A DNA stretch of 64,000 bases from an uncultured delta proteobacterium (GCA_963767925.1 CAVYGB010000010.1:160001-224000); one strand, 5' to 3'; shown: positions 1 through 20,768, counted from the stretch's first letter. Translations and numbers: made by a program. The notes: a model not told the origin generated them from the letters alone.

Positions 1-833
1 AGATCGCGGCCGGCGTGTTGCCCGACTCCGATCTGATCGGCGTCGAGGGGACCCTGGCCCAGCGCCAGGTGGCGCTGGTGCGGGGAGAGGCCCAGATCGA
101 GCGGGCCGCCGACACCCTGCGCGTGCTGCTGAACCTGCCCCCGGCCGACTGGGCGGCGCCGCTGCTGCCGACCGACGCCCCGGGCTTCGCCCACGTGGAG
201 GTGGCGTTCGACAAGGCGCTGGAGCGGGCCGTCGCCCTGCGCCCCGAGCTGGGGAGCGTGGCGATAAACCTGGAGCAGATCGCCCTCGACCTGGAGGTGG
301 CCCGCAACAGCCGGCTGCCCCGGCTGGACCTGCGGGCGGGGATCGGCTCGCTGGGCCAGGACGAACGTCACGACCGCACCCTCGAGCAGGTGCGCCGTGC
401 CACCGGGCAGCAATGGAACCTGGGGTTGGCCTTCGCCTGGGCGCCCTTGCAGGGCGCGGGCCGGGCCGAGGTGGCCCGGCTGGGCTCGGCGATGCGCGGA
501 AACGCCCTCGAGCGCGAGCAGATCCTGCTGACCGTGCGCTCCGAGATCCGGGAGGCCCTGCGGGCCATCGCCACCGCCGAGCGGCAGATCCACGCCTCGG
601 CCAAGTTCCGCGACCTGGCCGAGCGGAGCCTCGACGTCGAACAGCGCCGCTTCATCAACGGCCTGTCGAGCAACTTCATCGTGGCCCAGCGCCAGGCCGA
701 GCTGGCCGAGGCCCGCCTGGCCGAGCTGGAGGCGCTGATCCAGCACGAGCGGGCCAGCTCCGGGCTGCAGCTCGCCACCGGCGAGCTGCTCGAGGCCCGG
801 AACCTCCGGTTCGACCTGCGCCCCGGGGGCTGA
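1..833 (+). CDS. TolC-family outer membrane efflux protein (5' end lies outside the window)
   Basis: Open frame from the window edge. OEP-like helical repeats ('RPELG...ARNSRLPRLDL', 'LAERSLDVEQRRFINGLSSNFIVAQRQAEL') and a C-terminal 'LQLATGELL'. Confidence 0.85.
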   Translation, partial: IAAGVLPDSDLIGVEGTLAQRQVALVRGEAQIERAADTLRVLLNLPPADWAAPLLPTDAPGFAHVEVAFDKALERAVALRPELGSVAINLEQIALDLEVARNSRLPRLDLRAGIGSLGQDERHDRTLEQVRRATGQQWNLGLAFAWAPLQGAGRAEVARLGSAMRGNALEREQILLTVRSEIREALRAIATAERQIHASAKFRDLAERSLDVEQRRFINGLSSNFIVAQRQAELAEARLAELEALIQHERASSGLQLATGELLEARNLRFDLRPGG

Positions 834-8793: not shown

Positions 8794-10502
<1,709 letters not shown>

Positions 10503-10506
<4 letters not shown>

Positions 10507-11363
10507 CGGGGTGCCGGGAGCATGGTTGTGTAGGTGATGGTGCCGGGCCGCACGAACACGCCCACGCTGGCGATGCGGCGCTGGTCGGAGGCGAGCCAGC
10601 CGCTCACGCTGATCGGTCCGGTGGGCAGGTTGATCATGCCCGCCCGTCCCGAGCTGTCGGTGACGTCGACGCTGAACGAGGGGACCTTCTTGACCAGGTA
10701 AAACGGGGCGGTGGCGATGTCGGCGTCGTCGCTCGTGAGGCTCACCCCGTCGGCGGGCCGGAGCAGGCAGTCGTAAGAGCCGAGCATGAGGTGGCCGCGC
10801 TCGGGGACGATGGGCCGCCCGCCCTGGGCGGCGAAGAAGGCCAGCTCGCGGTCGGCCATCAGCGGCAGGGAGGGGAACTCGCGATCACCGCTGACCGGTG
10901 GGTAAAAGAAGTACACGCCCGGCATGCGGCCCGGAGGCCCGAACTCGACGAACCCGTCGAAGCCGGTGTCGAGCTCGAAGGCGAGGGCGCCAGCCGCGTC
11001 GCTGACCATGCCGCTGGCCAGCGGGCGGGCGCAGTCGAAGTCGAGCTTGTTACAGGCCCGCCCGGTGACGCCGCCGATCGGCGCGTCGGTGACCAGGTCC
11101 CGCAGGCGAAAGACCACCGACGCCTTGCGAGGCGCCGGCTCGGGCCAGGTGACCCCGCCAAGGCAGCTCCAGGCCGGGTTCGGCTGGCACACCGACTGGA
11201 CGCACACGGCGTCGGCGAAGGCCTGGTCGGCCCCGTCCTGGCAGTCGGCGTCGATCCGGCACTGCTGCCGGTAGGGCTCTACCAGCAAGCTGCAAGATGC
11301 AGAGAGGAGGGCGACGGAAATCCCCAGCGCCCGTTCGAGGAGCCGGCGTTCGCGCAATGTCAT
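10503..11363 (-). CDS. Hypothetical Cys-rich lipoprotein
   Basis: Lipobox-like 'LSASC'; Cys pattern 'CRIDADC..CVQSVC..WSC'; GGGGGA RBS; stop overlaps the kinase ATG (ATGA). Confidence 0.75.
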
Positions 11364-11790
11364 CGTTCCCCCGTGACCATGAGGTTGGTACAAGCGAAGA
11401 CCGTCCACGCCGCCGCGGGGAGAGTCTCGTGAGGGTTACGCTCCGACCACCGCCCGGTTTCTCTGTCATGCGCCACCTCGGCCAGACGCATGGGGGCCGG
11501 CCCGTATCGTACCTCAGCCCCTATCTTGTTCAAGCCAAAGTGCACGCAAACGCACGGCCCTGACGATGCCAAACGATTACAAGACCGCATCGCGAACGCA
11601 TCGGAATCGTGGCCGCTTTCGCTCAGCGCGCGCGTCCTCTCCTTCGCCGCGGACTGCCTGCGCTTTCGTCGCGGGCGGAGCGCGCTGCTCGCCGGTTCGC
11701 GTGGTCCTACCTTTCCCGACGCCGACGGTGATTTTCGGTGGCGTGCGGTTCCTTGACGAGCACCCAGGTCCCGAGGTCACTAGAACGTGG

Positions 11791-14086: not shown

Positions 14087-16666
14087 TCAGCGGGTGGCCG
14101 TGGGGGGCTGGACGAGCGTCGGGGGGCGGGCCAGGCGCTCGTTGAGCTGGGCCCGGTAGAGGCTGCGCGGCTCGATCAGCGCCCGGTCGGCGCCGTAGGT
14201 GCCGGTGCCGAGCAGGGCCCGGGCGCCGATGGCCCCGCCCATCACCCAGTTGTGCGCGGTGGGCGGATCGTCGACGCTGAACACCTCGGCCTCGCTGTTC
14301 CAGACCACCGAGTTTACCGCCGACCAGCCGTACGTCTTGCGGCCGCGCGCGAGATCGAAGTCCCCGCTGGGCTGCCCGCTGCTGTCCTGGACCCGCACGT
14401 TGTCGAGCAAGATCCCGGTCGACCAGCGCGAGTTGACCCGCACCCGCACCGACTTGCCCACCGCCAGCAGGTCCACCACCGCGTTGGGCCCCTCCACCTC
14501 GGTGCCGGTCATCAGGGCCGTGACGTGAGAGCCGTACGAGCGGTTGCGGTGGAGCAGGTTCTGCTGACCGCCGAGGTTGAAGGCAAACTGCGGGCAACGC
14601 TCCCCTTCCACCGCCAGGCCCACGTAGGTCACGTCCTCGACGGTGACCCACTTCGAGGGGGGCTCGAGCGAGACCGCCTCGCCCCCGAAGGCCTCCACCC
14701 GCACGTCCTTGACCCAGGCGTTGGCCACCGCGTTCACCCGCACCAGCTCCCCCTTGCCCGAGGGGCAAGGGCCGGGCACCGTGAACTCGCCCCGGGCGGC
14801 CAGCTTCTCCACCCCCAGCTCCGACACCCGCTCGGGGAAGTCGTAACGGGTCAGGTAGGCCTGGGTGAACTCCTTCTCCAGGGCGTTGGTCATCGGGACG
14901 TCGACCGTGATCCGGTTGCCCTCGATGCGGGTGATCCGCCGCTCGAAGGTCAGCCCGCCCTTCGCCTTCCAGGGCGACGGGACCTTGCCGTCGCGGTGTA
15001 CGGGCAGAAAATCGGTGCCGATGGCGCAGATCCAGCGCTGCGACTTCGGGCGGTGGACGATCACGTCGTCGCCGACCTTGAGGTCGCCCACCCGCTCGAG
15101 CGTGAAGGTGCGCGCCCCGACCGGCACGTAGACGTCGGTGATGGGGAAGGCCTCCTTGCCCGCCGCCCGCCGGCGCACCACCGGGCCCAGCTGGATGAGA
15201 GGCCGGGGCTGGCCGACCGCCCGCAGGAGCGTGGCCGGAGACCCCTCGGTCCCCTGCCCGCGCAGCACCACCCCGCCGACCGCCATCCGCAGGGTGCCGG
15301 CCACCATGAACTGGCCGGGCCCCAGCTCGACCGCGCCCCGGAAGCCCTGGGCATCGGGAGGCAGCGCCGAGACGGCGTCGATCGCGCTCTGGATCGTCGC
15401 GGTGTCGTCGCCGGTCCCCGAGGGGAGCAGCGGCGACGGTCCGGCGGCCGCGGGCACCTTCGGCAGCGGCACCCCGCCGCCCCGGTAGCCGCTGTGGGAG
15501 AAGTCCGGGACCCGGTTGCCCCGGGCATCTTCCGTGTATTTCAGGCAGCCGCTCGGCCCGGGGCGCACCCACAGGCCGCTCACCGGCCGGGCCCGAAAGT
15601 CCTTGCCGGTCGGTCCGGCGTCGAAGTGCCGGCAGGCCGACAGGTTCACCGCGCCGGGATCGGGCAGGGCCTCGGCCAGCGGGCTCGACTCGTGCGGCCG
15701 GCAGGCCCCCGCCTCGGCGACCGGCAGCAGGCCCTCGGCGGTCCGGGCCCGCTCGCGCAGCTCGTCGGCCGGGCCGCCGCCAGCACCCGGCGCGGTCGCG
15801 CCGGCGACCGCCGGGGGGGCGACCTTCCGGTCGGCCTCGGCGTCTTCGGCCAGCGCGGTCAAGGCGCGGGTCACCGGCTCGGCGTCGTCCTGGGAGAGCG
15901 AATCGAGCAGCACGTGCCCCTCGCCGACCCGGGCCAGGCCGTCGGAGGCCCGCGCCAGCAGGGTATCGCCGGGGCCGAGCAGCACCCCCCTGGGTCCCGT
16001 GCTCGCCCCCTGCACCGACACGCGTCCAGCACGCACGCTGACCAGGAGCAGCTCGCGCCGGGCCAGCCAGTTGACGTCGAGGCTCGTCGCCACCGTCTCC
16101 GCCGGCAACACCCGGTAGGGACCGGCCTCCAGCGCCCAGGCGTTGGCCCGGTTCGACTGGATGTGGGCCCGGGCCCGCCCGCCGAGCATCTGCAGCCGGG
16201 CGCCCTGGGCGGTCACCGAGGTCAGCCGGGCCCGGCCGTCCCGGCGCAGGAGGATCGTGCTGCCCTCGCCGAACCGGAGCGTGCCCGCCCCGGCCAGGGT
16301 CAACGGCACCTCGGCGGCCTCTGCCCGGGGCGCGGCCGCGGGCGCCGCGCCCGCCTCGGTCGCCGGCTCGAACTGGTAGGCGAGCGGCCCGGCCGGCCCG
16401 CGGTCGTCACCGACCACGAGGACCAGCGCGGTGGCGGCCACCGCCAGCCCGCCGAACAGCGCCGGGAGCCAGCGCCGATCAGACCGGCGCCCGGAGGCCT
16501 GGTAGACCTGCTGGGCCCGGGCCAGGCCGGTGGGCATCTGGCGGGGCCCGCGGGTCAGGCCGTGGCGGACGATGCGGCCGAGCAGGACGTGGCCACGTTC
16601 TTCGTCGTCCGACGGCGAAGCGGTCGAAAAAGGCGGCGGAACAGGCGGGGAAGGCGATCGCGACAT
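14087..16666 (-). CDS. FecR-domain anti-sigma fused to a pectate-lyase-like right-handed beta-helix domain
   Basis: TM 'WLPALFGGLAVAATALVLVV', FecR-like 'LRFGEGS...LGGRAR...WALEAGPYRV...VRAGRVSV', then 'GNRVPDFSHSGYRGGGVPLP...DDTATIQSAIDAVS...GAVELGPG...GVVLRGQG'. One uninterrupted 859-aa ORF. Confidence 0.8.
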   Translation of the reverse strand: MSRSPSPPVPPPFSTASPSDDEERGHVLLGRIVRHGLTRGPRQMPTGLARAQQVYQASGRRSDRRWLPALFGGLAVAATALVLVVGDDRGPAGPLAYQFEPATEAGAAPAAAPRAEAAEVPLTLAGAGTLRFGEGSTILLRRDGRARLTSVTAQGARLQMLGGRARAHIQSNRANAWALEAGPYRVLPAETVATSLDVNWLARRELLLVSVRAGRVSVQGASTGPRGVLLGPGDTLLARASDGLARVGEGHVLLDSLSQDDAEPVTRALTALAEDAEADRKVAPPAVAGATAPGAGGGPADELRERARTAEGLLPVAEAGACRPHESSPLAEALPDPGAVNLSACRHFDAGPTGKDFRARPVSGLWVRPGPSGCLKYTEDARGNRVPDFSHSGYRGGGVPLPKVPAAAGPSPLLPSGTGDDTATIQSAIDAVSALPPDAQGFRGAVELGPGQFMVAGTLRMAVGGVVLRGQGTEGSPATLLRAVGQPRPLIQLGPVVRRRAAGKEAFPITDVYVPVGARTFTLERVGDLKVGDDVIVHRPKSQRWICAIGTDFLPVHRDGKVPSPWKAKGGLTFERRITRIEGNRITVDVPMTNALEKEFTQAYLTRYDFPERVSELGVEKLAARGEFTVPGPCPSGKGELVRVNAVANAWVKDVRVEAFGGEAVSLEPPSKWVTVEDVTYVGLAVEGERCPQFAFNLGGQQNLLHRNRSYGSHVTALMTGTEVEGPNAVVDLLAVGKSVRVRVNSRWSTGILLDNVRVQDSSGQPSGDFDLARGRKTYGWSAVNSVVWNSEAEVFSVDDPPTAHNWVMGGAIGARALLGTGTYGADRALIEPRSLYRAQLNERLARPPTLVQPPTATR

Positions 16667-16674
16667 GATGGGCC

Positions 16675-17364
16675 CTAGGCCTCCGTCTTGGCCGGGATGC
16701 CGGGGCTGGCGACCTCGGTTCGCGGGTGGGTCGTGTAGGGGGCGAGCACCGGGTCACTGCTCATCAACACACCGAGCCGCTTGGTCAGACGTTCGAGCCG
16801 GCGGCGCACGGTCGAGACCGAGACGCCCACCAGCCCGGCGATCTCGGCCTGCTCGAGGCCTTCGATGTAGCGGAGGACGTAGATGGTCCGGTCCTTGATC
16901 CGGAGCTGGTCCATCATGCGGTAGAGGTGGACGATCACCTCACGCGACTCAGGATCCATCTCGGTCGAGACCGGCAGAGCGAGCCGCTGATCGGCCACCG
17001 GAGCGAGCCACCGTCTGACGCGCCGGCGTCGAATTTCCTCCTGCGCCCGCCGGATCGCAATGGCCATCACAAAGGATCGAAGTGACTCGGTCTTCTGCAG
17101 GCCCTTCACTTTGCGGAAGAATCTCAGAAAAACGTCCTGCGCCAGGTCCTCAAGCTCCCCGTCGGGACCGAGCATCCGGCGCAAGGTTGTCTCGACCAGG
17201 GGGTAGAACCGGTGCCAGGCCAGCTCGGGCGCCTCGCTCTGGCCATCGATCAGGGCGCGCGCGAGCAGCCCCTCGTCGAGGCTCGGGGAACGTGCTTCCG
17301 CCGTCTTGAGCGATCGCGCAGGGCGCACGGCAGGTGACCCTATTCGGTGCGGGGCCGCAACCAG
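16675..17364 (-). CDS. ECF-type RNA polymerase sigma-70 factor (start uncertain: CTG at 17364 behind GGAGG, or GTG at 17328)
   Basis: Region 2 'ELEDLAQDVFLRFF...LRSFVMAIA'; region 4 'IYVLRYIEGLEQAEIAGLVGVSVSTVRRRL'. Confidence 0.9.
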   Translation of the reverse strand: MVAAPHRIGSPAVRPARSLKTAEARSPSLDEGLLARALIDGQSEAPELAWHRFYPLVETTLRRMLGPDGELEDLAQDVFLRFFRKVKGLQKTESLRSFVMAIAIRRAQEEIRRRRVRRWLAPVADQRLALPVSTEMDPESREVIVHLYRMMDQLRIKDRTIYVLRYIEGLEQAEIAGLVGVSVSTVRRRLERLTKRLGVLMSSDPVLAPYTTHPRTEVASPGIPAKTEA

Positions 17365-17526
17365 GTTGGAGACCTCCCCACGGGTGTCGTTCCGGGGAGG
17401 GGTTTGCCAGGAGAACGGGCAGCGGCGGCGGGCATCGGGCCGGGAGCGGCGGAGCGTCGGAGCGTCTCCATTTCTTGCCGAAAGCCCATTCCTTATGGAT
17501 ACCGCTCGCTTTGTGGAACCGTCCAC

Positions 17527-17549
17527 GAAATCGTTACAGAAATCGTTAC
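17527..17549. promoter_or_regulatory. Direct repeat GAAATCGTTAC x2 (12-bp period) upstream of the ECF sigma gene; candidate operator
   Basis: Exact 11-bp AT-rich repeat at 17527-17537 and 17539-17549 in intergenic DNA. Confidence 0.55.
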
Positions 17550-17608
17550 CGCGGCACCGTCTTTTCGTGGCGGCGCTGCTAACACCGCGTGTCGTTGCGG
17601 TATCCATC

Positions 17609-18604
17609 TCAACGTGCGGCGAACAGGGGCGGCACACCGAGGACCGAGGCGCGGTAGCCCAGCGTCGAGGCGACGATGGGCGCCAGGCTGGGCAAGGCGC
17701 GCTGCAGGCGGCGGGTGATCTCCGGAACGTAGACCGCGGCCGAATCGGCCACCCCGCCGGAGATAACTATCACGTCGGGGTCGAGGATGCTCTGGACCGC
17801 GCTGAGGGCGACCGTCCAGAGATCGACCCCCCGATCGACAACCTGGCGCGCCCAGGGCACGCCCGCCGCGGCCGCGGCGAACAGGCGCTCGCCCCGCCCC
17901 TCCGCCTCGGAGATGGGCGTGCCGGCGGCCGCCGCCAGCCGGCGGGCCTCCGCCGCGAACCCGGCGCCGGCGGCGTAGCTCTCGAGCGCCCCGATCTCCC
18001 GGTTGTCCCAGCTCAGAAACTCGCTCCCCGGCAGCAGCGCCCCGATCTCGCCGGCGGCGTAGCTGCGGCCCCGCCACAGCTTGCCGTCGATCACCACCGC
18101 GCCGCCGATGCCGGTGCCCACGGCGATGAGGAACATCGAGCGGGCCCCCTTGCCCGCGCCGACCGCCTGTTCGCCCAGCGCGGCCAGGTTGACGTCGTTC
18201 TCCACCCGCACCGGCAGGCCCAGACGCTCCGCGAGCAGGGCCCCCAGGGCGACGTCCCGCCAGGCCAGCGCGCCGGCCACCAGGACGACGCCGTCCGGCC
18301 GGGTCATCCCGGGGGCGCCCACGCCGACGCCGAGCGGACGCTGGCCGGCGGCCCGCGCCTTCGCGATCAACGCCGCCCCCGACCGCACCAGGCAGGGATA
18401 AGCCGGCCCCAGCGCCCGCTCCGCGTCCGAGGCGGGCCCTCCGGGCAGATCGGCGCCCTCGTCGCGCCCGGAGGCGCCGAGGCCCCCCGCGTGCTCGACG
18501 TAGCTCTCGGCGTGCACGACGCCGGCGCCATCGACGACCGCGCCGAAGACCTTGGTGCCGCCCAGATCGAGGCCGACGTAAACAGCCTCGCCCGCGCCGC
18601 TCAT
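17609..18604 (-). CDS. ROK-family sugar kinase
   Basis: 'GLDLGGTK', 'GVGAPG', 'VENDVNLAALGE', 'GTGIGGAVV', 'AGEIG'. No N-terminal HTH, and the Cys zinc motif is absent. ATGA overlap with the upstream gene. Confidence 0.92.
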   Translation of the reverse strand: MSGAGEAVYVGLDLGGTKVFGAVVDGAGVVHAESYVEHAGGLGASGRDEGADLPGGPASDAERALGPAYPCLVRSGAALIAKARAAGQRPLGVGVGAPGMTRPDGVVLVAGALAWRDVALGALLAERLGLPVRVENDVNLAALGEQAVGAGKGARSMFLIAVGTGIGGAVVIDGKLWRGRSYAAGEIGALLPGSEFLSWDNREIGALESYAAGAGFAAEARRLAAAAGTPISEAEGRGERLFAAAAAGVPWARQVVDRGVDLWTVALSAVQSILDPDVIVISGGVADSAAVYVPEITRRLQRALPSLAPIVASTLGYRASVLGVPPLFAAR

Positions 18605-19686
18605 GCCCGTTTCCACAGGTCGATCGGCTTGCGCACGTCGGGCGGCGGCGTGTAGGGCCAGGGGATCTTGCGGCCCTCGCCGGCCGACTGATAGGCGGCG
18701 TAGATGATCTTGAGGACCTCGCGCCCATCCTCCCCGGTCTCGAAGGGCTTCTCCTTGCCCATCACCACCCGGCAGAAGTGCCCGAGCTCCTGGGGAAAGC
18801 CGTAGTTCCAGACCTCCTCGTACATCGTGAAGCTGTGGCCCTTTGTGTCGCCGGCCTTCTCCTGGGCGTAGCCGTAGCCCTTCTGGCTGTAGGTCAGGAG
18901 CGCCGACCCGCGCAGCAGATCGGCCCGCGTGAACCCCTCGCTGCCGTAGATCTCGCAGCGGTCGTCGACCCCGCCCCGCTTGGCCCAGCTGTTTTCCGCC
19001 AGCACCAGCCCGCCGCCTTCGAACTCGATGATCACGAGCGAGTGGTCCTCGCCCTTCGTCTTCTCGCTGTGCACGTAGGTGCCCATCTGGGCGTAGACGC
19101 TCTTGACCGCAGGCTTGCCGAGCACCCAGCGCCCGTATTCGATCGAGTGGCAGCCCATGTCGAGCAACACGCCGCCGCCCGACCGCTCGACGTCCCAGAA
19201 CCAGGGCATGTGGGGGCCGTCGTGCTCCTCGCTCTGCTTGACCAGGAACGGCTTGCCGAGGGCCCCCTCGTCGACGAGGGCCTTGGCCCGCACGTATTTC
19301 GGGGCGAAGAGCAGCTCCTCGGCGTAGAGCAGGTGGACGCCCGCTTCCTTGCAGGCGGCGATCATGCGATCGGCCTCGGCCAGCGTCCGGCACAGGGGCT
19401 TCTCGCAGACCACGTGTTTGCCGGCCCGGGCGGCGGCGATGGCCGCCTCGGCGTGCAGGTCGTTCGGCAGGGCCAGCGACACGAGCTGGATGTCCTTGCG
19501 GGCCAGCAGCTCCCGGTAGTCGGTGTACGCGTGGGGGATGCCGCGCTCCTCGGCGAAGCGTTTGGCCTTGCCCGGGCTGGGCGAGGCCACCGCCAGCAGG
19601 TTTGCCTCGGGGACCACCTTCAGGGCGTGGGCGTGCAGGTCGGCGATGAACCCGCTGCCGATGATGCCGTAGCCGACTTTGTCCAT
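18601..19686 (-). CDS. Gfo/Idh/MocA family NAD(P)-dependent oxidoreductase
   Basis: 'GIIGSGFIA', 'GKHVVCEKP', 'GGGVLLDMGCH'. Confidence 0.93.
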   Translation of the reverse strand: MDKVGYGIIGSGFIADLHAHALKVVPEANLLAVASPSPGKAKRFAEERGIPHAYTDYRELLARKDIQLVSLALPNDLHAEAAIAAARAGKHVVCEKPLCRTLAEADRMIAACKEAGVHLLYAEELLFAPKYVRAKALVDEGALGKPFLVKQSEEHDGPHMPWFWDVERSGGGVLLDMGCHSIEYGRWVLGKPAVKSVYAQMGTYVHSEKTKGEDHSLVIIEFEGGGLVLAENSWAKRGGVDDRCEIYGSEGFTRADLLRGSALLTYSQKGYGYAQEKAGDTKGHSFTMYEEVWNYGFPQELGHFCRVVMGKEKPFETGEDGREVLKIIYAAYQSAGEGRKIPWPYTPPPDVRKPIDLWKRA

Positions 19687-19727
19687 ACCCTTTCCTCCAA
19701 CGATCGGTGGGGGCTGGTCAAGCCTTG

Positions 19728-20768
19728 CTAGAACGTTTTTACCACCTTGGTGGTAAGCCCCCGGGGTCGGTCGGGGTCCAGGTTGCGCGCCAGCGCCAGC
19801 TCGAGGGCGAGGAGCTGGCCGGGGAGGACCGCGGTGGCGGGGGAGAGCCACTCGGGGACGGTCACCGCGAGGGGCAGGCGGACCGTGGCGGTGGGGGCGG
19901 CCGCCGGGTCGTCGCTGATCACGGTGAGCTCGGCCCCGCGCGCGCCGATCTCCTGGGCCAGCTTCTGCATGTCGGGCAGGGCGGCACCCGAGGGCATCAC
20001 GAGCAAGGCGGGCGTGCCTGGCTGCACCAGCGCGATGGAGCCGTGACGCAGGTCGGCCGCCGACCAGCCGTGGGTGGGCAGGCAGAGCAGCTCGCGCAGC
20101 TTGAGCCCCAGCTCGTCGGCGGTGCACAGGTTGATGCCGCGGGCGAGGGTCATCAGGCTGCCGATGTCGCGGAGCCGCCCGGCCGCCTCGCGGGCGGGCG
20201 CGGCCGCCCCCTCGAGCACCCGCTGCATGGCCTCGGGCAGGCGGCGCAGCGCCTCGAGGCCGGCGGCGTCGCCGGCCAGCGCGACGCCGAACAGCGCCAC
20301 CGCCGCGAGCTGCGTGCTGTAAGTCTTCGTCGCGGCGATGGCCAGCTCGGGCGTCAGGCACAGGTCGAACACGTGGTCGGCGGTGCGGGCCAGCGGGGAG
20401 GCGGGGTCGTTGGTGAAGGCGACGGTGGGCCGGCCCTGGCGCCGCCCTTCCTCGACCACCGCCACCACGTCGGGAGACTGTCCCGACTGCGAGATGCCGA
20501 CCACCAGCGCCCCCTCGAGGCGCGGGGGCCGGTGGTACAGCGTGTGGAGCGAGGGGGCGGCCGAGGCGACCGGCACGCTGGCCAGCATCCCCCAGAGGTA
20601 ACGGGCGTAGGTGGTGGCGTGGTCGGAGCTGCCGCGCGCGGCGACGAGCGCATAGCTGAAGGGGGGAAGCGACTGCGCGACGCGCGCCATGGCGGCGGTG
20701 TGGCGGTCGATGAAGCCGGCCACCTCGGCGGGCTGGCTGGCGATCTCTTGCGAAAGGAACGAGCTCAT
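19728..20768 (-). CDS. Double-SIS-domain protein, probable glucosamine-6-phosphate deaminase of the NagB-II type
   Basis: 'ARGSSDHA', 'ISQSGQSPD', 'AATKTY', 'ELGLKLRE', 'DPDRPRGL.KV'. Lacks the GlmS glutaminase domain. Confidence 0.8.
   Translation of the reverse strand: MSSFLSQEIASQPAEVAGFIDRHTAAMARVAQSLPPFSYALVAARGSSDHATTYARYLWGMLASVPVASAAPSLHTLYHRPPRLEGALVVGISQSGQSPDVVAVVEEGRRQGRPTVAFTNDPASPLARTADHVFDLCLTPELAIAATKTYSTQLAAVALFGVALAGDAAGLEALRRLPEAMQRVLEGAAAPAREAAGRLRDIGSLMTLARGINLCTADELGLKLRELLCLPTHGWSAADLRHGSIALVQPGTPALLVMPSGAALPDMQKLAQEIGARGAELTVISDDPAAAPTATVRLPLAVTVPEWLSPATAVLPGQLLALELALARNLDPDRPRGLTTKVVKTF

Follow-up and report, generated by a model that had tools for sequence, protein, structure and literature searches.

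Can an anti-sigma factor perceive a signal through a domain of its own, rather than through a separate receptor that relays it? This question is raised by two genes on the minus strand, at positions 14,087 to 17,549, of a 64,000-nucleotide stretch of DNA from an uncultured delta proteobacterium (GCA_963767925.1 CAVYGB010000010.1:160001-224000), a stretch that we refer to at its full length as the window. A first-pass annotation had read in them an extracytoplasmic function (ECF) sigma factor and, directly behind it, a FecR-type anti-sigma factor carrying a beta-helix of the kind found in polysaccharide lyases. Our computational follow-up makes us lean, if not heavily, towards the view that these genes encode a dedicated sigma/anti-sigma pair, whose anti-sigma factor uses its own periplasmic beta-helix to sense a ligand directly, most likely a glycan or an oligosaccharide.

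A sigma factor gene followed by an uninterrupted anti-sigma gene

The locus lies in DNA of 70-78% G+C, which is why long open reading frames (ORFs) occur there in several frames. The one that concerns us (P0001; 14087..16666, minus strand) runs from an ATG at 16666 through 859 amino acids (aa) without a stop, and its G+C at the three codon positions (0.75/0.56/0.94) follows the same pattern as in the genuine genes around it: it is a real gene. An overlapping ORF of 1030 aa on the plus strand has the wrong codon-position pattern and was rejected as a gene.

The sigma gene precedes it (16675..17328, minus strand). Its stop codon occupies 16675-16677, leaving between the sigma ORF and ATG 16666 the 8 nucleotides (nt) that the first-pass annotation had described. 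The product, 217 aa from a GTG at 17328, matches Sigma70_r2 (5.6e-12), Sigma70_r4_2 (5.8e-14) and Sigma70_ECF in Pfam, and also TIGR02937 (1.2e-23). The longest sigma ORF extends to 17637; we place the gene at 16675-17328, with GTG 17328 as its most likely start, because protein conservation with the orthologue from a genome of the same genus (locus L001) begins near this codon, and gaps whose lengths are not divisible by three interrupt the alignment of the DNA upstream of it. The right-hand limit of 17549 first given to the locus is therefore no gene end; it coincides with a conserved block, GGTAAC-N17-CGTGGAC, to which we return below. Judged by its profile matches, the sigma factor is to be classed as ECF-type and not as FecI-type: it scores 49.7 bits against the FecI model NF041727 (an equivalog, cut-off 260) and 48.5 against PRK09651 (cut-off 185).

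A membrane protein with a FecR-type domain and a beta-helix

The first 66 residues of the fused protein (16469..16666, minus strand) are predicted to form a cytoplasmic, sigma-binding segment, and carry the motif H-V-L-L-G-R-I-V-R-x-G-L, which is kept in A1, in the homologues P0019 and P0021 and in the one at locus L050. A single transmembrane helix follows at aa 67-85 (16412..16468, minus strand), the only hydrophobic segment and the sole Kyte-Doolittle window above 1.6. Lys and Arg count six before this helix and one after it (positive-inside), and all six Cys of the protein lie beyond it, which points to a one-pass topology with the N-terminus in and the C-terminus out.

On the periplasmic side, aa 118-251 (15914..16315, minus strand) are predicted to form a beta-solenoid-like domain of FecR type. 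An AlphaFold2 (AF2) model of aa 1-385, built from a 15-row alignment, is confident only at about aa 95-250, with pLDDT above 90 for the domain. In structural comparison by VIA, the domain matches BDI_1681, a putative FecR-type anti-sigma factor of Parabacteroides (4m0h_A; Z 16.0, 127 residues, rmsd 2.5, 17% identity), and PupR (6ovm_R, chain 111-251; Z 15.7, 136 residues), the third match falling to a Z of only 6.5. Foldseek (E 2.2e-7) returns BDI_1681 and PupR and nothing else below 1e-3. The models thus assign aa 118-251 to the FecR/PupR juxtamembrane (CJM) fold. PF04773, the FecR family, is matched in 8/16 fused homologues (best 1.1e-9).

What follows this domain sets the protein apart. According to the available part of a PupR study (PMC7186176), residues 110-238 of PupR are the CJM and 250-324 the STN, and both are needed to bind the signalling domain of the transducer. 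Our alignment with PupR ends at chain residue 251, the end of the CJM, and leaves the STN part unmatched. Its place is taken here by a low-complexity, poorly conserved linker at aa 252-363 (15578..15913, minus strand), containing Cys 322 and 345, with pLDDT below 50 across aa 287-376. In P0019 and P0021 the gap between FecR domain and beta-helix is only about 25 residues, too short a stretch, within the family, to accommodate an STN of 75 residues. Our protein has kept the CJM part only, and the missing STN fits a sensor that is independent of a receptor. No gene for a TonB-dependent receptor was found among the 23 ORFs scanned at 5498-28420 (chosen ORFs, Pfam E at most 1e-5 or 1e-4), nor in L001, a distant or unscanned gene being possible. 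In a column considered for Gly-Thr self-cleavage of the FoxR type, some fused homologues have G-T-E where P0001 has A-T-S; this column may be that of FoxR G191-T192.

The remainder of the protein, at aa about 364-846 (14129..15577, minus strand), is predicted to be a periplasmic right-handed parallel beta-helix. The AF2 model of aa 330-859, from a 73-row alignment, reaches a pLDDT of 92.7 and a pTM of 0.93. Its best VIA match is an alginate epimerase/lyase (8ja4; Z 26.1, 272 residues aligned, rmsd 2.5), with Geobacillus virus E2 ORF18 (7chu, Z 25.1) and a polygalacturonase (1bhe, Z 23.0) among the further ones; in all, 142 chains have a Z of at least 8. Foldseek gives 52 matches at E of at most 0.001, led by phage depolymerases and a K1 capsule lyase, and no single CAZy family stands out among the structural matches. 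The profile of the family matches 7chu at the N-cap only (5.2e-7), through the common motif GDDT..IQ.AID, and PF12708 is matched in 5/16 fused homologues (best 6.9e-5). Direct scans of the 859-aa protein gave sub-threshold candidates, which we did not retain: DUF4955 (0.14), BT_3328 (0.0059) and beta_helix_1 (0.054) among families, and tailspike N-caps, at an E of 0.48 only, in a phmmer search of the PDB.

The architecture that the first-pass annotation had read, namely one transmembrane helix after a short N-terminus, a FecR-type domain at about 16290-15950, a linker region containing cysteines (322, 345 and 374) and a pectate-lyase-3-like beta-helix in the C-terminal 500 or so aa, is thus recovered from end to end by prediction, though no sequence library recognises either the FecR-type domain or the beta-helix in this protein.

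The fusion is conserved and arose once

Fifteen metagenomic or genomic proteins span at least 80% of P0001 at 41-82% identity, and the same three parts recur, joined by a shorter linker, in P0019 and P0021. In a FastTree phylogeny of the beta-helix region (72 of the 73 rows, one having been dropped for gaps), the 19 sequences labelled as fused form one clade with a support of 1.0. Besides the window protein, 14 of these were recognised from their coverage and two (P0019 and P0021) from their sequence; P0022 was added for its kinship, and the N-truncated P0017 completes the set. P0005 and P0015 stand outside the tree alignment. That it is no assembly error follows from the conservation of the fusion across a clade of 19 sequences; it is real, old and of single origin. 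Across the same 14 homologues, identity is 47-86% for the C-terminal part and 32-72% for the N-terminal part, which makes the beta-helix the more constrained half.

The fused gene is rare. It is present in 3/89 genomes of the order (completeness 63-100%), at 2/44 loci among species-representative genomes, and at a single locus (L050) when the 80 best of 210 relatives from metagenomes are considered. One further relative (L012) matches from aa 325 onwards. With aa 1-260 as the query, a word-limited search yielded a single weak relative (P0126, 392 aa, E 2.9e-5) and no free-standing N-terminal module.

The adjacent sigma factor is the predicted partner

Among the 89 genomes of the order, orthologues of the sigma factor (91% and 73% identical) are confined to the two other genomes that carry the fused gene, and the remaining matches are all paralogues at no more than 63% identity. 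Sigma orthologues above 70% identity and the fused gene therefore share exactly the same 3/89 genomes, a co-occurrence that counts as one observation, because the three genomes are kin. The genomes of the order each carry up to 8 sigma paralogues at E of at most 1e-25, mostly some 40% identical to this sigma factor. The closest (63%) lies in the window's own genome (L168, C8:2504000-2511000) next to a Ser/Thr kinase gene; DUF1587/1592/1595/1588/1585 and DUF1552 genes are present at that locus, and no anti-sigma gene was found there.

Structural modelling supports binding of the adjacent sigma factor by the N-terminus of the fused protein. The complex of sigma with aa 1-95 scored a median of 0.80 (runs of 0.84, 0.80 and 0.76), the best of three controls reaching 0.02, against a mark that is attained by 116/157 solved complexes and 2/215 mismatched pairs, counts that are approximate here, since our own alignments were used. 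No fewer than 76% of the contacts are common to the runs, with a partner pLDDT of at least 59. The predicted interface involves aa 19-62 of the anti-sigma factor and both sigma domains; the conserved motif (aa 26-37) is part of it.

Upstream of the sigma gene, the block GGTAAC-N17-CGTGGAC, with a tandem GTAACGATTTC repeat (17521..17550, minus strand), is kept in L001 within an otherwise diverged intergenic region. It is a candidate ECF-type promoter, in which GGTAAC and CGTGGAC could be the -35 and -10 elements. The same region holds GCGGTATCCATAAGGAATGGGC with a CCAT...ATGG inverted repeat, also common to L001 (17484-17550, minus strand). We claim no regulon on the strength of this motif; that sigma has one is what we infer.

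A beta-helix family with ties to carbohydrates

The beta-helix belongs to a large family spread over many phyla, whose members are 38-44% identical to ours over aa about 364-846. Free-standing members have about 510-550 aa, and three unfused paralogues (38-39% identity) are encoded in the genome of the window itself. Other members are linked to DUF6298 (often C-terminal), F5/8 type C (discoidin), CBM96, Laminin_G_3 or PATR repeats. Genes for glycoside hydrolases adjoin unfused relatives at 4/11 loci scanned: a GH8 gene at L020, a GH88 gene with an outer-membrane barrel and LamG at L015, a GH127 gene with GntR at L042, and a GH95 gene with FucU and AraC at L038. The other seven give no such signal; the closest genomic relative without the fusion, at L003, has YidC, a KH/R3H-domain protein and MnmE upstream of it and no sigma pair. 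GH88 enzymes act on the products of lyases, and the GH88 neighbour at L015 hints at a lyase and proves nothing. Taken with the fold, these family partners and neighbours suggest that the beta-helix of the fused protein may bind or cleave a glycan.

In Opitutaceae (L026, L029, L036, L039, L044), an ECF sigma gene is followed by a gene for a 288-aa protein without a Pfam match, whose start overlaps the sigma stop, then by UPF0047 and by a free-standing member of the family, the sigma gene lying 1.5-2 kb upstream of the last; Gfo and SIS+CBS genes are found further along at L029. The five loci are probably orthologous and count once. In the window's own genome (contig C2), a stop-free ORF of 709 aa (L171:4789-6918, minus strand) contains Sigma70_r2 at 189-251, r4_2 at 278-327 and a C-terminal Laminin_G_3 at 546-701, and is divergent from one of the unfused paralogues (L171:6615-8489). 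It may be a sigma factor with a lectin-like ectodomain in one polypeptide, or two genes in one frame.

A model of direct ligand sensing

We propose that the first 66 or so residues of this one-pass inner-membrane protein would hold the sigma factor in the cytoplasm, while the CJM domain, the flexible linker and the beta-helix of about 480 residues would be exposed to the periplasm. The beta-helix would substitute for the STN, which in ordinary FecR proteins takes the signal from a TonB-dependent transducer; from this replacement, direct sensing appears the most likely mode of action. Binding of the ligand, most likely a periplasmic or envelope glycan or oligosaccharide, would make the FecR/linker region more or less accessible to proteases in the periplasm and within the membrane, on the pattern of FecR/FoxR and RsgI; proteolysis would then release sigma, which could go on to transcribe its regulon. 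A more specific version is tentative, and we would bet against it as it stands in full: a beta-helix captured from a lyase family would act as a non-catalytic, TonB-independent, one-protein periplasmic sensor of a glycan of uronic or amino sugars, coming from prey walls or from the cell's own exopolysaccharide, and would be a Gram-negative counterpart of RsgI that arose once in a small lineage of Myxococcota.

Several observations weigh against the proposal. Neither an anti-sigma domain (Pfam, NCBIfam), nor PF04773, nor PF12708 or another lyase domain is matched by the fused protein at E of at most 1. The fold list of the beta-helix includes proteins that are not concerned with glycans (NosD, Z 18.5; Vag8, 18.6; PfbA, 19.3), and we found no characterised member of the family and no literature on DUF6298. 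The score of the complex model may reflect likeness to solved sigma/anti-sigma complexes, which are well represented among known structures, so that passing the mark speaks of likeness and is not proof. The pair is not universal, since the fused homologue of L050 (613-2685, 690 aa) is preceded by an unrelated gene fragment (1-516, plus strand) and no sigma gene was detected in the 5175 nt of that locus; a PDB sequence search with the L050 neighbours, that fragment included, returned nothing. In the third genome, the adjacency of sigma and fused gene is interrupted by contig ends. The conserved upstream motif retrieved only itself in a genome-wide search; a looser version had 2 matches in the genome versus 2-3 with a reversed control, and within the window 3 matches against 0.79 expected, a number attained in 4/100 shuffles. 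Also, a second gene for an anti-sigma-like protein (P0122) is convergent with the fused gene and ends 40 nt away from it.

The sugar-catabolic genes upstream, which had been taken to fit a carbohydrate role, are indeed present on the same strand (17609..20768, minus strand): by Pfam they encode a double-SIS protein (NagB-II/GlmS-C-like), a Gfo/Idh/MocA protein and a ROK kinase. We regard them as context only. The double-SIS protein scores 192-197 bits, all NCBIfam matches of the three being below curated cut-offs, and about 280 nt of intergenic DNA separate these genes from sigma. The order SIS-Gfo-ROK-sigma-anti-sigma recurs in L001, of the same genus, and no SIS, Gfo or ROK gene was matched in the 1.5 kb upstream of sigma in the third genome (L140), which makes the link to sugar genes a weak one.

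Sensor, enzyme or shield

We compared the residues of 15 fused sequences with those of 54 unfused ones. At positions conserved in at least 85% of the unfused set, the fused set has the same majority residue, with four exceptions. All 15 fused sequences retain R576, D589, E620, D755, N806 and six Trp. When the threshold is relaxed, the fused clade is seen to have replaced several residues, at polar positions too, that free members conserve: His at aa 745 (44/54 unfused) by Ala or Asn, Cys at aa 708 (41/54) by Gly, Ser or Asn, Gly at aa 778 (51/54) by Thr or Ser, and the Asn-Arg-Gly at aa 774 (44, 46 and 36 of 54) by Arg with a deletion of two residues; it has also gained Cys 345, 374 and 547. 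Because of these replacements, the beta-helix may be a module that binds rather than cuts, and the substitutions themselves could denote either that an active site has been lost or that its specificity has shifted.

The comparison is also compatible with a beta-helix that works as a polysaccharide lyase or hydrolase and is anchored to the inner membrane by the anti-sigma factor, which would then be enzyme and regulator in one. Such an enzyme could cut an envelope or imported glycan and couple its turnover to the release of sigma, or be shed in soluble form once the anti-sigma factor undergoes proteolysis. Most of the family-invariant polar residues are retained, as just described, the best structural matches are enzymes, and, in the part of PMC10328401 available, an RsgI with a GH10 module is described. 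Set against this, the conserved His, Cys, Asn-Arg-Gly and Gly are replaced in the fused clade, a loss that is not strong evidence either way. We consider an enzyme unlikely, and still the alternative that fares best.

More doubtful is a domain that binds or shields protein, capping the FecR/linker region against a site-1 protease or contacting a partner in the outer membrane, with envelope damage or a protein ligand as the signal. The fold also serves adhesins, autotransporter passengers and NosD (Z 18.5-19.3), several family-conserved residues have been lost in the fused clade, and a partner domain protects the anti-sigma factor from proteolysis in FoxR, as reported in the available text of PMC11637429. 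However, the N-cap motif, the CBM and discoidin partners of the family and the glycoside hydrolase neighbours point to carbohydrates, and the strong conservation of groove-type polar residues and of Trp fits the binding of a ligand.

Neighbouring regulators

Sigma could also answer to other proteins encoded nearby. P0122 (12931-14046, plus strand) has 371 aa, an HxxxCxxC motif, one transmembrane helix at about aa 83-101, a FecR match (6.1e-5) with a V-R-G-T-V-F-E stretch in it, and TPR matches at 279-340. No sigma gene lies directly upstream of it. Its start overlaps by 4 nt an ORF of 398 aa with coding-like G+C at third positions and no Pfam match (P0123; 11738-12934, plus strand), and the block formed by the two, of about 2.7 kb, is missing from the syntenic L001, where an M11-like peptidase sits. 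Further along, a Ser/Thr protein kinase of 570 aa (8794-10506, minus strand) is syntenic in L001; the kinase and an ORF of 301 aa without a Pfam match (together 8794-11408, minus strand) are 64% and 74% identical to their L001 counterparts. The kinase may be a further regulator of sigma.

Control of sigma by P0122, by this kinase or by both, and not by the fused protein, would recall the ECF267 group, which in the accessible portion of Casas-Pastor et al. 2021 (PMC7826278) combines a FecR-like TPR anti-sigma factor with a nearby protein kinase. The composition of P0122 and the synteny of the kinase agree with such control, as does the closest sigma paralogue, which adjoins a kinase and lacks an anti-sigma gene, and the fused protein without sigma at L050. 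But the P0122/P0123 block is missing in L001, which retains the sigma-fused pair, P0122 is convergent and not co-transcribed, and the fused protein is the better candidate in view of the spacing of 8 nt, the co-occurrence in 3/3 genomes and the complex model; we hold control by these neighbours to be quite improbable. The idea that the 859-aa ORF is an artefact, be it a frameshift or misassembly of separate FecR and beta-helix genes or a chance product of high-GC DNA, which does yield many long spurious ORFs such as that of 1030 aa on the opposite strand, can be rejected in view of its coding-frame G+C pattern, the 15 independent proteins that span it, its short-linker variants with three parts and the single fused clade.

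Comparison with known systems

The fused protein shares with FecR, PupR and FoxR an adjacent ECF sigma gene, a short cytoplasmic N-terminus, one transmembrane helix and a periplasmic CJM domain (Z 15.7 with PupR). By analogy, release through regulated proteolysis may be expected here too, and FoxR offers a model for it (PMC11637429, available text). Unlike these proteins, it lacks an STN and has a linker of about 110 aa and a beta-helix of 480 aa instead; no transducer gene was found nearby among the 23 ORFs scanned, the sigma factor does not look FecI-type, and Pfam recognises no anti-sigma domain in it. Three features that define the FecR proteins of cell-surface signalling, the STN, the transducer and the FecI-type sigma, therefore fail, and the fused protein departs from that group. 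BDI_1681 (4m0h/4m0n), the best match to its periplasmic FecR-type domain, is seen in the structure as a chain of 216 residues, without a beta-helix. In Bacteroidetes, SusC-like transducers serve as partners of such proteins.

Its other end brings to mind RsgI of Clostridium thermocellum, in which, according to the available part of PMC10328401, an outer C-terminal carbohydrate-active module (CBM3b, PA14, CBM42, GH10) is carried on a long spacer and SigI is freed by proteolysis. The logic would be the same, that of a one-pass anti-sigma factor with an outer C-terminal module, which in our case is carbohydrate-active by resemblance of fold and by family context only. We found no homology, and no Pfam match to the N-domain of RsgI at E of at most 1. 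Moreover, sigma here belongs to the ECF type, a FecR fold stands next to the membrane where RsgI has its Asn-Pro autocleaving PD, and in this diderm host the sensor is exposed to the periplasm instead of the medium. By analogy, the membrane side of the fused protein may be likened to a FecR-type regulator and its sensor end to RsgI.

Within the PF12708-related (Pect-lyase_RHGA_epim) family it differs in being tethered to the membrane through FecR, the family being otherwise secreted, and in the His, Cys and Asn-Arg-Gly replacements and the clade-specific Cys 345, 374 and 547. The likeness to ECF267 loci is one of neighbourhood only: a sigma factor that is not FecI-type, FecR-like membrane proteins and a Ser/Thr kinase occur together here too, and P0122 fits the FecR-plus-TPR description. 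The available part of PMC7826278 makes no mention of a beta-helix fusion.

We found no published description of a FecR/beta-helix anti-sigma factor, in a search that was thin on subscription journals and did not include the ECF-classification supplements. The first-pass annotation knew of no described fusion of this kind, and this stands for the architecture; it does not extend to the concept, an anti-sigma factor with its own carbohydrate module being already established for RsgI in the portion of PMC10328401 available. What is new is the combination of FecR and beta-helix, and the idea of the sensor is matched by the Clostridial RsgI.

Implications

The fused family is small and comes from uncultured organisms only. 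If our reading is right, FecR-type regulators would not be bound to TonB-dependent transducers, and the FecR fold next to the membrane would serve generally as an adaptor onto which self-contained ligand sensors can be mounted. Diderm bacteria would also possess a counterpart to polysaccharide sensors of the RsgI type. A module this compact, leading from glycan to transcription, could also serve as a part for biosensors. Fused and free members of the family offer a natural comparison between a likely receptor and likely enzymes, and this comparison would be a way into a large beta-helix family of polysaccharide-utilisation loci that is found in many phyla.

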